The notes below the pieces were generated by a model. It did no database searches, was not told where the DNA came from, and saw nothing but the letters and a program-made list of their open reading frames with translations. Shown here piece after piece: positions 53,510 through 60,835 of a stretch of DNA of 64,000 bases. Numbering within the stretch: position 1 is the first letter of the stretch; the number at the start of each line of letters is the position of its first letter. This stretch comes from Gemmatimonadota bacterium (lineage in GTDB: Bacteria; Gemmatimonadota; Gemmatimonadetes; Gemmatimonadales; GWC2-71-9): positions 19-64,018 of the forward strand of contig QHVB01000035.1 of assembly GCA_003222195.1 (NCBI GenBank). The letters are read 5' to 3'. A program made the translations under genes and the position numbers.

Positions 53510-53564
53510 TGTAAGTCTAAGTAGCCAGGGGCAGAATCGAACTGCCGACACGCGGATTTTCAGT
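53510..53564 (-). repeat. partial tRNA-Phe copy (3' 43 nt plus 12-nt flank), a putative distal att site
   Basis: The 55 nt TGTAAGTCTAAGTAGCCAGGGGCAGAATCGAACTGCCGACACGCGGATTTTCAGT match 60751-60805 with 3 mismatches (52/55). Confidence 0.85.
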
Positions 53565-53572
53565 TCTTCCCG

Positions 53573-54562
53573 CTAGATGGCAGCACACCCTCGCATAAGA
53601 CTTGCGCGGAAGAGGTCAGCAAAGACATGGACGTGGGATTCCAGGAGCATGTGGTCACCGTCGCAGCCGTCCGGCCCGACGTGCTTCTCCGTTTCGCGCG
53701 CTACCCGTTTCCAGCGAAGCATCGGGCTGCCCGGGCGCAGCCATCCCTTGTTGGGGAGAAACAAGCTGAGACGGCCGTCGAAATGGCGCGGTGTGTAACG
53801 ACGCAGCCCCACGATCGTGGCCGCCTGAACCTTCGCGCGGAGCACCTCCACGGGATCCGGCGGGGCGGGAGGGGCGTTCCGCCGCGCTTTGCGGTCGCGC
53901 AGTCTCTGGGTGATGTACCGGCGGCGCTCCCCATTTGAAAGCGACAGCAGCACACGGGCGTGCTCGCGTACACTTTCCACCTCACCCGCGATGCGCTGTC
54001 CGAGTTGCGGCAGCCGCCGATACGAGGTTGGATACGGACTCGTGAACAGGGCGACGAAGCGAATGGCCGCGCCGTGCTGCAGCAGTTGTCGCGCAAGCTC
54101 GAACGCGATCGTCCCTCCCGCACAATAGCCGGCGATGACGTACGAATCGTCGGGCCGATAGGCCCGGATCTGGGCGGCGAAGTAGGCAGCCAGATCCTCA
54201 ACGCGCGTCAGGGGCTCGCTCTGACCATCGACACCCGGAGGCTGCAGTCCGAAGAACGGCTGATCGTCCCCCAAGTGCTGCGCGAGGAGACGGTAGCAGA
54301 AGACGTCGCCGCTGTGTCCCGGCACGCCAAAGATGGGAGCGCGCATGCCGTGCGGCTGCAGCGGCACGATGGCCCGCTCTTGCTGGGTGAGCGTCTCGAC
54401 CGAGCGGAGGAATTCCACAATATCAGCCTTGCGCTCGCGCAGCTGGTGGCGCAGCTCGGGCGTCAGCACACCGGTGGGGGCAGTGCACCGCAGCTGGTCG
54501 CCGTCCGCCCAGACCCGGATGTCGCGGCTCCGCAGCTCCTCGAGAAAGGCCGGCACGATCAC
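53573..54562 (-). CDS. TubC-N-type docking domain fused to a thioesterase with a Cys nucleophile (GYCAG)
   Basis: The GTG start forms a GTGA overlap with the NRPS stop (the track ORF to 54811 is an out-of-frame extension over the T domain). AFLEELRSRDIRVWADGDQLRCTAPTGVLTPELRHQLRERKADIVEFL docking motif. Alpha/beta-hydrolase ..IFGVPGHSGDVF..VIAGYCAGGTIAFELA..GDHMLL... Confidence 0.8.
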   Translation of the reverse strand: MIVPAFLEELRSRDIRVWADGDQLRCTAPTGVLTPELRHQLRERKADIVEFLRSVETLTQQERAIVPLQPHGMRAPIFGVPGHSGDVFCYRLLAQHLGDDQPFFGLQPPGVDGQSEPLTRVEDLAAYFAAQIRAYRPDDSYVIAGYCAGGTIAFELARQLLQHGAAIRFVALFTSPYPTSYRRLPQLGQRIAGEVESVREHARVLLSLSNGERRRYITQRLRDRKARRNAPPAPPDPVEVLRAKVQAATIVGLRRYTPRHFDGRLSLFLPNKGWLRPGSPMLRWKRVARETEKHVGPDGCDGDHMLLESHVHVFADLFRASLMRGCAAI

Positions 54563-59629: not shown

Positions 59630-60712
59630 GTGACGCAGACATCCCTGTCGGAGGCTCTAGCGTTCGGGCCCGATGCGTGGGATGCGCTGCGCGCGCGCAG
59701 CACACCGCCATCCCCATTCATGAGCTGGGCGTGGCATCGTGCGTGGGCAAACTCGGCGCCGCCGGCGGAAGTGGATGCGACCCGGGTTCTCCTGCTCCAC
59801 GGCTCGGACAGCTCGCTTCAGGCCATGTTGCCCCTCCGCATGTGCCGCTTTCGGTTCCACCGGGTCTGGGTGCGTGCGCTGAACTGGGCCATCGGGGAGA
59901 TCGGCTGTCCGGATCAGCTTGACGTGCTGGCTCGGCCCGAGGCCGACATGCGATCCTTCGCGGCGGCGATCGAAGCCATGCCGTGGGAGGTTATTATCCT
60001 CGACAACCTCGTGGAGGCAGCTCCCAATGCGGAGCGGCTGTGCGCCGCCCTTGCGGCACGCGGCCATGCGATCCGACGGAGCCCGCTGTGGAGCTGTCCG
60101 CGGCTCGAGTTGCCGCGTTCGTGGGACGCCTACCTCACGACGCTCAGCTCGAACCGACGCCAGATCCTGCGCCGCAAGGAGCGCAGCCTTTTTCGAGATC
60201 ACGCCGCCACCCTTGTGGACTATGGGGAAGACCGGCTCGACGAGGGCTGGGACCACTTGCTGCGGTTGCACGAGCAGCGCTGGGACGGTGCAGGCGGGGG
60301 AGCGTTCCGCGACCCTCGCAACGAGCGGTTGCAGCGGCAGTTCGCCGGTGAGATGGCGAAGCAAAAGCGACTCTGGCTTACTACGCTGGACTTGGACGGG
60401 CAACCCGCAGCGGCTTGGTACGGCTTTACCTCCGACGACACCGTGTACTTCTACCAGAGCGGGCGAGCCTGGCGCTGGAAGCGGGAAAGCGTGGGCCTGG
60501 TGTTGATGGGACTGATGATTCAGCGCGCGATTCAGCAGGGGTATCGCACGTTCGACTTCCTGCGCGGGGACGACCGTTACAAACACCACTGGACGCCGGC
60601 GCGACGGAAGACCAGCGAGACCGTGATCTTCCGCTCGGGGTGGAGAAGGCTCTGGTTGCGCGCGCTTGATGCGGTCTCGGCGTTGCGGCAGGGAGTACCG
60701 CGCGACGCCTGA
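59630..60712 (+). CDS. CelD/BcsL-like GNAT (FemAB-fold, Acetyltransf_6 family) acyl/aminoacyl transferase
   Basis: GTG start assumed (VTQTSLSEALAFGPDAWDAL..), 360 aa. ..PFMSWAWHRAW.., ..RRQILRRKERSL.., ..YFYQSGRA..SVGLVLMGLMIQRAIQQGYRTFDFLRGDDRYKHHW.. is typical of the family. The start is uncertain. Confidence 0.72.
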   Translation: MTQTSLSEALAFGPDAWDALRARSTPPSPFMSWAWHRAWANSAPPAEVDATRVLLLHGSDSSLQAMLPLRMCRFRFHRVWVRALNWAIGEIGCPDQLDVLARPEADMRSFAAAIEAMPWEVIILDNLVEAAPNAERLCAALAARGHAIRRSPLWSCPRLELPRSWDAYLTTLSSNRRQILRRKERSLFRDHAATLVDYGEDRLDEGWDHLLRLHEQRWDGAGGGAFRDPRNERLQRQFAGEMAKQKRLWLTTLDLDGQPAAAWYGFTSDDTVYFYQSGRAWRWKRESVGLVLMGLMIQRAIQQGYRTFDFLRGDDRYKHHWTPARRKTSETVIFRSGWRRLWLRALDAVSALRQGVPRDA

Positions 60713-60762
60713 GCCCGCGGCCCTCCGTTCGGGTAGCGTCCTCGCTCATCTGTAAGTCTATA

Positions 60763-60835
60763 TGGCCAGGGGCAGAATCGAACTGCCGACACGCGGATTT
60801 TCAGTCCGCTGCTCTACCAACTGAGCTACCTGGCC
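60763..60835 (-). tRNA. tRNA-Phe: tRNA-Phe (anticodon GAA), no encoded CCA
   Basis: The minus strand GGCCAGGTAGCTCAGTTGGTAGAGCAGCGGACTGAAAATCCGCGTGTCGGCAGTTCGATTCTGCCCCTGGCCA folds by hand into a perfect cloverleaf (7/4/5/5-bp stems, CT-GAA-AA anticodon loop, TTCGATT T-loop). Confidence 0.94.

Follow-up and report, generated by a model that had tools for sequence, protein, structure and literature searches.

A 64,000-nt stretch of the genome of a Gemmatimonadota bacterium (contig QHVB01000035.1; this whole stretch is referred to as the window) carries, immediately 3' of its tRNA-Phe(GAA) gene, a segment of 7,186 bp that holds exactly five genes of a nonribosomal peptide synthetase (NRPS)-like cassette and lies between two copies of the 3' end of the tRNA. 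This segment, at positions 53565-60750, is probably a decayed cargo island that resembles the cis-mobilisable elements (CIMEs) of other bacteria and bears a Campbell-type scar in the style of a tyrosine integrase. The insertion is real, but it survives as a stripped-down relic, left by an ordinary integrase-type island, and is not a new kind of mobile element. The original prediction, made from the sequence alone, had described an integrase-less island that was either old and domesticated or mobilised in trans. The features of the insertion, its five genes and the genes on either side are as follows, in window coordinates.

51560-53389, minus strand: PAS/HisKA_3 sensor kinase, flanking native backbone (Pfam; ortholog in the relative L007)
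53510-53564, minus strand: left repeat copy, a displaced tRNA-Phe 3' fragment, attR-like (O-B') end (repeat search)
53565-53574, minus strand: putative P-arm relic of 10 nt, AGCGGGAAGA in tRNA orientation, overlapping the thioesterase stop codon by 2 nt
53573-54562, minus strand: thioesterase (TE) with an N-terminal TubC-type docking domain (Pfam PF18563, 3.8e-20; PF00975, 2.7e-24)
54559-57486, minus strand: adenylation-(PP-loop)-carrier (A-T) protein, 975 aa (Pfam, NCBIfam and PDB matches, motif positions)
57483-58631, minus strand: flavoenzyme of the acyl-CoA/acyl-carrier dehydrogenase (ACAD) family (Pfam Acyl-CoA_dh_N/M/1)
58628-59293, minus strand: Sfp/HetI-type 4'-phosphopantetheinyl transferase (PPTase) (Pfam ACPS, AASDHPPT_N; NCBIfam HetI, 4.2e-48, below cutoff)
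about 59630-60712, plus strand: divergent Acetyltransf_6 (CelD/FemAB-like) GNAT acetyltransferase (Pfam PF13480, 1.2e-30)
60751-60805, minus strand: right repeat copy, tRNA positions 31-73 (60763-60805) plus 12 nt of 3' flank (60751-60762), TATAGACTTACA in tRNA orientation
60763-60835, minus strand: intact tRNA-Phe(GAA), 73 nt, CCA not encoded, at the attL-like (B-O-P') island end (ARAGORN)
60892-64000, minus strand: Ser/Thr kinase-AAA_16 (STAND) gene, flanking native backbone, running off the window (Pfam)

The direct repeat is 55 nt long, its copies agree at 52 of the 55 positions and start 7241 nt apart, and its 35-nt core occurs exactly twice in the 64 kb, where 100 shuffles give an expectation of 0. 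It starts at tRNA position 31, exactly at the anticodon loop, and the island begins 12 nt beyond the 3' end of what is the sole tRNA gene that ARAGORN finds in the window. The left copy has an altered acceptor end, ..CCTGGCTA where the right copy has ..CCTGGCCA (GGCTA for GGCCA), followed by the 12-nt flank CTTAGACTTACA; outward of it comes a conserved region upstream of the PAS kinase that is common to the related contigs L007 and L106. The description of the repeats in the original prediction, as the 3' 43 nt of the tRNA plus 12 nt with a mutated acceptor end in the left copy, was borne out in full by ARAGORN and a repeat search.

Scanning species-representative genomes with the flanking PAS kinase placed the window in uncultured soil Gemmatimonadales, and the closest match, the metagenome-assembled genome (MAG) SMAG_U2761 (L007, DASWEL010000007.1), has an empty site at the locus. 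Its STAND kinase (96% amino acid identity) is followed by tRNA-Phe, 109 nt and the PAS kinase (91%), with none of the five island genes, no second tRNA-Phe fragment and a single copy of the tRNA sequence at this locus. Between the window and L007, the tRNA together with the 56 nt separating it from the STAND kinase agrees at 98-100%, and about 60 nt upstream of the PAS kinase are conserved as well. An empty site with the PAS kinase adjoining tRNA-Phe is what the original prediction had proposed to look for in relatives. For the species of the window itself, the predicted empty site would read tRNA + CTTAGACTTACA + PAS-kinase flank, and the predicted junction of an island circle would read ...CCTCGCTCATC + repeat + TCTTCCCGCTAGATGG....

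Other islands share the junction seen in the window. A metagenome search with the repeat end followed by TCTTCCCGCT and then any base other than A returned 24 soil contigs, all of which match the window at 10 of 10 positions across the inner junction AGCGGGAAGA|A31 of the tRNA. Each of them has a tRNA-Phe 3' fragment starting at position 31, the 10-mer, and then a conserved non-coding stretch of about 150 nt, beyond which the cargo is wholly different from contig to contig and at least 15 kinds of outer flank are found. A repeat family dispersed for reasons unrelated to integration, which the original prediction had named as a result that would weaken it, is excluded by this association of one tRNA-Phe fragment with variable cargo. 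The cargo of these sibling islands includes an FRG-domain protein, HNH nucleases, a DndB-like protein, a D12 methyltransferase, a Schlafen-like protein, a MerA-like reductase, an ECF sigma/anti-sigma pair and a YadA-head protein, and an all-against-all comparison found no protein family that recurs among them.

Two contigs (L113 and L114) contain complete islands of 9-10 kb between the intact tRNA-Phe and its fragment. About 55 nt downstream of the intact tRNA, both have a pair of TGTCCCCC direct repeats 11 nt apart, and 18 of the 19 distinct P arms carry this motif, in the same orientation, at the distal end of the ~150-nt stretch, such that the two complete islands carry TGTCCCCC pairs on both arms. 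Two natural T-arm variants of tRNA-Phe are exchanged between the intact gene and the fragment when L113 is compared with L114; therefore, the rebuilt 3' part of the tRNA derives from the element, and the crossover is near the anticodon loop. One sibling island recurs at 99.1-99.7% nucleotide identity in outer flanks that are unrelated to one another, and homology breaks off precisely where the tRNA fragment ends. Judged by its sequence features, the anatomy of these islands is that of a candidate attP, with a tRNA-derived core and putative arm-type sites to either side of it.

The ~150-nt stretch was also considered as a structured RNA, such as a tmRNA-like molecule, an intron or a guide RNA. 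Rfam returned nothing even at E<=1, ARAGORN called no tmRNA, and RNAalifold returned a covariation term of -0.26, the compensatory changes falling almost wholly in the T-arm of the tRNA. Since these tests were negative, the stretch is read as a DNA recombination arm. An IS605/TnpB-type guide RNA, an IS110 bridge RNA and Tn7- or CRISPR-associated-transposon (CAST)-type homing were likewise rejected as explanations of a scaffold joined to a tRNA fragment, on three grounds: the 43-55 nt of tRNA sequence are a true duplication, transposase genes of these kinds are missing, and arm repeats flank the core on both sides.

Some contigs of this family are more complex. Several contain arrays with two tRNA-Phe 3' fragments in series, which suggests that elements of more than one type have integrated one after another. 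In L098 the two fragments (1576-1618 and 6101-6143) flank a single 1399-aa gene and the junction sequence of the inner fragment is different, and in L107 they lie at 2140-2182 and 2854-2896. A second conserved module is found on the opposite strand inside sibling islands (L113:6459-6687, L110:about 7406-7529, L109:4930-5010), in which TGTCCCCC-type repeats are combined with a degenerate 5' half of tRNA-Phe, whose end lies in the anticodon loop (..GAGCAGCGGACTGAAAA), and with a GC-rich hairpin that resembles a terminator. This module may be a decoy, or an att site used by some other family of elements.

The occupants of the tRNA-Phe locus also differ among close relatives of the window. In the related metagenome contig L106, a different island with a complete P arm abuts the region upstream of the PAS kinase of a window-like genome. 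In L002, a contig of the same species with 99.98% identity over 16 kb, what comes after the right repeat is not the 5' half of the tRNA but TCTTCCCGCT and then novel sequence, the arm of another island; this TCTTCCCGCT is the same 10 nt that adjoin the left repeat in the window. L002 shows a second island stacked between the tRNA and the window-type island, a tandem that accretion would produce. Empty, singly occupied and stacked states of this hot spot are thus documented in soil Gemmatimonadales, and together the empty site, the shared junction and the alternative occupants support the reading of the segment as a tRNA-3'-end island.

Three further observations concern the locus and its relatives. 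Near the 3' end of the STAND-kinase gene, about 23 nt of the window (60866-60888, GAGGACTCCTTGACCGCACTGGC) are absent from L007. Two other STAND-kinase orthologues (L118:3740 and L119:4306, 97% and 90% nucleotide identity) lose homology 34-43 nt before the stop codon (window 60926-60935), and tRNA-Phe does not come next in either; the 5' side of the tRNA is also a rearrangement boundary, or these kinases are paralogous copies. An 86%-identical cassette, accompanied by an extra AsnB-like gene, lies elsewhere in the MAG that has the empty site (L089, DASWEL010000349.1), inside an exopolysaccharide locus; what the island in the window provides may therefore be an accessory second copy of something the lineage can already do.

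The four minus-strand genes of the island (TE, A-T, ACAD and PPTase) are coupled through GTGA, ATGA and ATGA overlaps, and the TE stop codon begins 8 nt from the left repeat. The start codon of the GNAT gene is uncertain, with gene callers giving 330 or 442 aa. The gene content, order and 8-nt spacing agree with what had been predicted. Non-coding gaps within the island measure 8, 336 and 38 nt and therefore leave no space for a recombinase gene or pseudogene. All five genes were assigned to other families by Pfam and NCBIfam, with no integrase or recombinase among them; nor was an integrase found in ten integrase-sized open reading frames (ORFs) elsewhere in the window, in 40 ORFs of sibling islands (Pfam; including the complete islands L113 and L114), or in the contexts of STAND-kinase orthologues, and a regex scan for the tyrosine-recombinase boxes had no hits. 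The predicted lack of an integrase in the island is upheld by the Pfam assignments, the gap sizes and the motif scan alike. The recombinase of the island family, to judge from this absence, is presumably encoded in trans.

Base composition gave no island signal when the segment was compared with the rest of the window. Its GC content is 0.650 against 0.661 for the remainder, the z-scores of GC content at third codon positions (GC3) are all within 1.5, and its tetranucleotide distance ranks 11th among 25 equal-sized windows, which agrees with the native composition noted in the original prediction. The nearest homologues are all from Gemmatimonadales; given this and the native composition, the donor was a relative. 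The exact A-T protein occurs in 17 metagenome contigs, with the arrangement unchanged.

The window island retains the core duplication (52/55) and the 10 core-proximal nt of the P arm, and a search for both TGTCCCCC arm regions and the ~150-nt arm found them absent. Strain comparison with contigs from other samples (L005 and L006) reveals blocks of near identity, which were taken as homologous-recombination tracts:

53181-61572, no strand: near-identical block shared with L005 (strain comparison)
53295-61116, no strand: near-identical block shared with L006 (strain comparison)

L005 and L006 diverge from the window by 2-3% in the genes for the PAS kinase, response regulator and STAND kinase, yet across the 7.3 kb of the island they differ from it at 3 positions, one of them being unique to the window. 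The near-identical tracts end within the flanking genes (53180/53294 on the left and 61573/61117 on the right) and not at the repeats, and exceed the island by 0.1-0.7 kb of flank. This suggests that the island now spreads by homologous recombination in its flanks, which fits better than site-specific integration. Because both arms are missing and the strain comparison points to recombination in the flanks, we favour, as something inferred rather than demonstrated, an old decayed island over one that is still mobilised in trans. The first of the two alternatives in the original prediction is thus preferred, and the second disfavoured.

The second alternative has nonetheless to be weighed, as a still active CIME or satellite on whose retained core an integrase encoded elsewhere or by a helper would act, perhaps together with an adjacent arm-bearing island (cis-mobilisation after accretion). 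The repeat core and the 10 core-proximal nt of the P arm are kept; the siblings also lack integrases, yet one of them sits at 99.1-99.7% identity in different flanks, such that some trans-acting activity must exist; and the tandem with an arm-bearing island in L002 is the arrangement described for cis-mobilisation. We nevertheless judge present activity unlikely, as the window lacks both TGTCCCCC arm regions, the shared tracts run past the att repeats as homologous recombination gives, and no integrase candidate was found. The notion that the five genes are ordinary chromosomal genes beside a chance or slippage duplication of part of the tRNA would agree with the native composition and the missing integrase, but is effectively refuted by the chance expectation of 0, a junction repeated at 10 of 10 positions in 24 island borders, a repeat whose start coincides exactly with the anticodon loop, the position used in known tRNA-Phe attP sites, and the existence of an empty site and of alternative occupants.

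Rather improbable, in our assessment, is a cassette that is ancestral at the locus and was lost from L007 by recombination between the 55-nt repeats, which would make the polymorphism a deletion and not a recent gain. Direct repeats of this length are able to mediate precise deletion, the composition is native, and the outgroup contig L087 has PPTase-ACAD-A/T-TE downstream of tRNA-Phe in the same neighbourhood. The duplicated tRNA 3' fragment and the element-type arm relic would still need an insertion at some point, however, and unrelated islands occupy the same site in other relatives. The cassette in L087 also differs from that of the window, with an extra beta-lactamase-family gene, no GNAT and a different distal flank, and no tRNA remnant repeat surrounds it within the contig.

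Several observations weigh against an integrase-made, now decayed island. L087, whose flanking genes have about 82% amino acid identity to those of the window and whose tRNA-Phe sequence is the same as in the window and L007, shares the neighbourhood on the 5' side of the tRNA and has an A protein that is 92% identical; either a gain in the window lineage or a loss in L007 may lie behind the polymorphism. None of the searches turned up an integrase capable of having made the scar; because of this, the case for tyrosine-recombinase catalysis is made by anatomy. The tandem arrangement is known from one metagenome contig, L002, which ends 213 nt into the second island, and the recombination tracts are deduced from metagenome contigs that are possible strain mosaics. 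Finally, the repeat reaches 12 nt past the tRNA into host-like flank, with 10 of 12 positions identical. The island-side copy of these 12 nt, TATAGACTTACA, resembles the native flank CTTAGACTTACA, which is also present in L106 and L103, and the P' of the sibling islands differs (CTTG..). This extension is left unexplained by a simple attP x attB event, and fits better with a last insertion by a circle excised from a related host, or with plain homologous recombination. The 12-nt extension would result if two fragments recombined in a related host and the circle so formed entered by one crossover; repair-associated copying would have the same result.

The history that we propose for the decayed island begins with a tyrosine-integrase-style insertion at tRNA-Phe(GAA), with crossover at the anticodon loop. 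This would have rebuilt the tRNA on one side and displaced the original 3' 43 nt and flank by 7.2 kb, beside the last 10 nt of a P arm. The window island would be a member of the family of cargo islands that use this site, or have been captured by that family. Loss of both arms, together with the lack of a recombinase, would have left a decayed cargo island that can probably no longer be excised, that would now move from lineage to lineage by homologous recombination in the flanking kinase genes, and that newer islands entering the restored tRNA would bury by accretion.

CIMEs are cis-mobilisable elements derived from decayed integrative and conjugative elements (ICEs) or integrative and mobilisable elements (IMEs), such as the ICESt1/ICESt3-related islands of Streptococcus thermophilus (PMC5704250). 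Like them, the window island has no integration or transfer genes, and in L002 the window-type island is in tandem with an element that presumably entered the restored site. It differs in being more eroded, with the core repeat and 10 nt of one arm kept and the arm-type sites gone, and in having no known parent ICE/IME or integrase, in hosts that are uncultured Gemmatimonadales. The same target is used by P4-integrase islands at pheV/pheU of enterobacteria (PMC11537424), and the attP of the Burkholderia P2-like phages phiX216/phi52237/PhiBP82.3 is annotated as the 45-bp 3' end of tRNA-Phe(GAA). These phages and P4-type islands have the same segment as core, from the anticodon loop to the 3' end, and leave the tRNA intact at one end and a partial copy at the other, but carry their own integrase beside the att site, which the window island and its siblings do not. 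Arms or junctions sought in viral contigs, plasmids and phages gave matches to the tRNA part only, leaving the TGTCCCCC arms of the sibling islands unmatched in these collections.

Serial occupation of one tRNA is also a property of the tycheposons of Prochlorococcus, in which successive integrations push older elements inward and scatter partial tRNAs, and the tRNA-linked islands of Prochlorococcus are cargo-rich hot spots that are mostly not active elements (bioRxiv 10.1101/2020.12.28.424599). The tRNA-Phe locus described here resembles them in its succession of occupants and partial tRNA copies. Tycheposons, however, have as defining features a tyrosine (or serine) recombinase of their own and, in most cases, a replication module, neither of which was seen in the two complete islands. 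A search of the literature found no report of tRNA-Phe islands in Gemmatimonadota.

More than 20 cargo-only islands with the same att junction, carrying defence genes, a mercury reductase, adhesins and regulators, are the basis for a more speculative reading of the family. It is possible, though doubtful, that the tRNA-Phe site is served by a host- or helper-encoded integrase that the islands never carry and that loads and unloads gene cassettes at one chromosomal site. We would equally tentatively suggest that such an arrangement could amount to an integron-like or satellite-like system for cassettes that uses a tRNA as its att site, of which the NRPS-like island would be a decayed member.

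The cargo itself centres on the A-T protein, in which the following parts were delimited.

residues 1-459 (56110-57486, minus strand): A core (Pfam, NCBIfam)
residues 474-794 (55105-56067, minus strand): WbuX-like PP-loop insert (Pfam, NCBIfam, PDB)
residues 807-858 (minus strand): A-sub (AMP-binding_C), with LPDYMLP and NGKVDR (motif positions)
residues 888-951 (minus strand): peptidyl carrier protein (PCP) (Pfam)

The A domain is canonical (AMP-binding 2.9e-81; TIGR01733 1e-130, above cutoff), and in the PDB it matches NRPS A domains best. Adenylation, carrier and release domains are all present in the cassette (PP-binding 2e-14, Thioesterase 2.7e-24), and Pfam found no condensation domain in the five island proteins; the cluster is therefore termed NRPS-like, with a single loading module. 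Between motifs A8 and A9 the A domain is interrupted by a domain of about 320 aa that leaves both A sub-domains intact. Interrupted NRPS A domains have a methyltransferase, ketoreductase or oxidase between these core motifs. The cassette resembles them in having a whole extra domain between A8 and A9 of a canonical A domain with a carrier domain next, and differs from them in that the insert is a WbuX-like PP-loop ATP-pyrophosphatase with a zinc ribbon and there is no condensation domain. A literature search on A domains interrupted by a PP-loop domain found no description of such an insert. The zinc ribbon (CxxC..CxxC) is at residues 476-499 and the PP-loop motif SGGKDS at residue 543; the score against the N-acetyl sugar amidotransferase family (WbuX, TIGR03573) is 131 bits, below the cutoff of 203.2, and the match to PDB 8wex has an E value of only 0.0025.

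The specificity code of the A domain, read by eye from the standard motifs and not computed, is DLTKIGEVGK and Asn-like, one conservative change away from what we take to be the asparagine code, DLTKLGEVGK. In the TE, a Cys (GYCAGG, residue 147) stands in place of the nucleophilic Ser of GxSxG, as it does in 7 of the 7 homologues compared, including that of Microvirga. Thioesterases with Cys are rare, the beta-lactone-forming TE of obafluorin being an example. The ACAD has weak, below-cutoff similarity to the prolyl-PCP dehydrogenases RedW/PigA. From these assignments, the cassette probably loads asparagine on the carrier domain; the PP-loop insert and flavin dehydrogenase would then modify it, and the Cys-thioesterase and the GNAT would serve for its release or transfer.

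Full-length homologues of the A-T protein with the same architecture number more than 100, at 63-100% identity, in Gemmatimonadales, MAGs labelled Thermoanaerobaculia and cultured Microvirga, and none of them is specifically named. The four-gene core stays together, in several genomes among genes for Wzz, Wzy, a flippase, a glycosyltransferase and AsnB-like proteins, and in another genome the five-gene unit has a housekeeping context. With modest confidence, the domain content and the loci of homologous cassettes suggest that an asparagine-derived group is attached to a surface polysaccharide. In Microvirga sp. M2 (L117, CP134064.1), an unusually long tRNA-Asn(GTT) call of 85 nt (14501-14585) comes directly after the dehydrogenase gene of the homologous cassette. 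Its position beside a cassette with a predicted Asn A domain may be a coincidence, an integration site or a functional link, the island GNAT being FemAB-like.

Elsewhere in the window are genes for a full-length bacterial serpin (32572-33819, plus strand; Pfam 2.9e-103), a radical SAM/SPASM protein with a PCP_red domain (7497-8834, minus strand) and an ATP-grasp L-amino-acid-ligase-like protein adjoining a GT87 glycosyltransferase (15532-16905, minus strand).

A tool-free reading of a tRNA-fragment repeat correctly picked out a real insertion polymorphism in an uncultured phylum. The element is of an ordinary kind, a decayed tRNA-linked island in a recombination hot spot of an unusual organism, and its state can be dated to a stage at which the scar is kept while the machinery and arm sites are lost. 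What is noteworthy is an arm-bearing island family with no integrase in cis and an adenylation domain interrupted in a way that is undescribed. With the integrase nowhere in cis, the question of who moves integrase-less islands becomes testable in Gemmatimonadales. The cargo, with its PP-loop-interrupted A domain and Cys thioesterase, is a widespread uncharacterised cassette, and cultured Microvirga that carry it would make its chemistry accessible.

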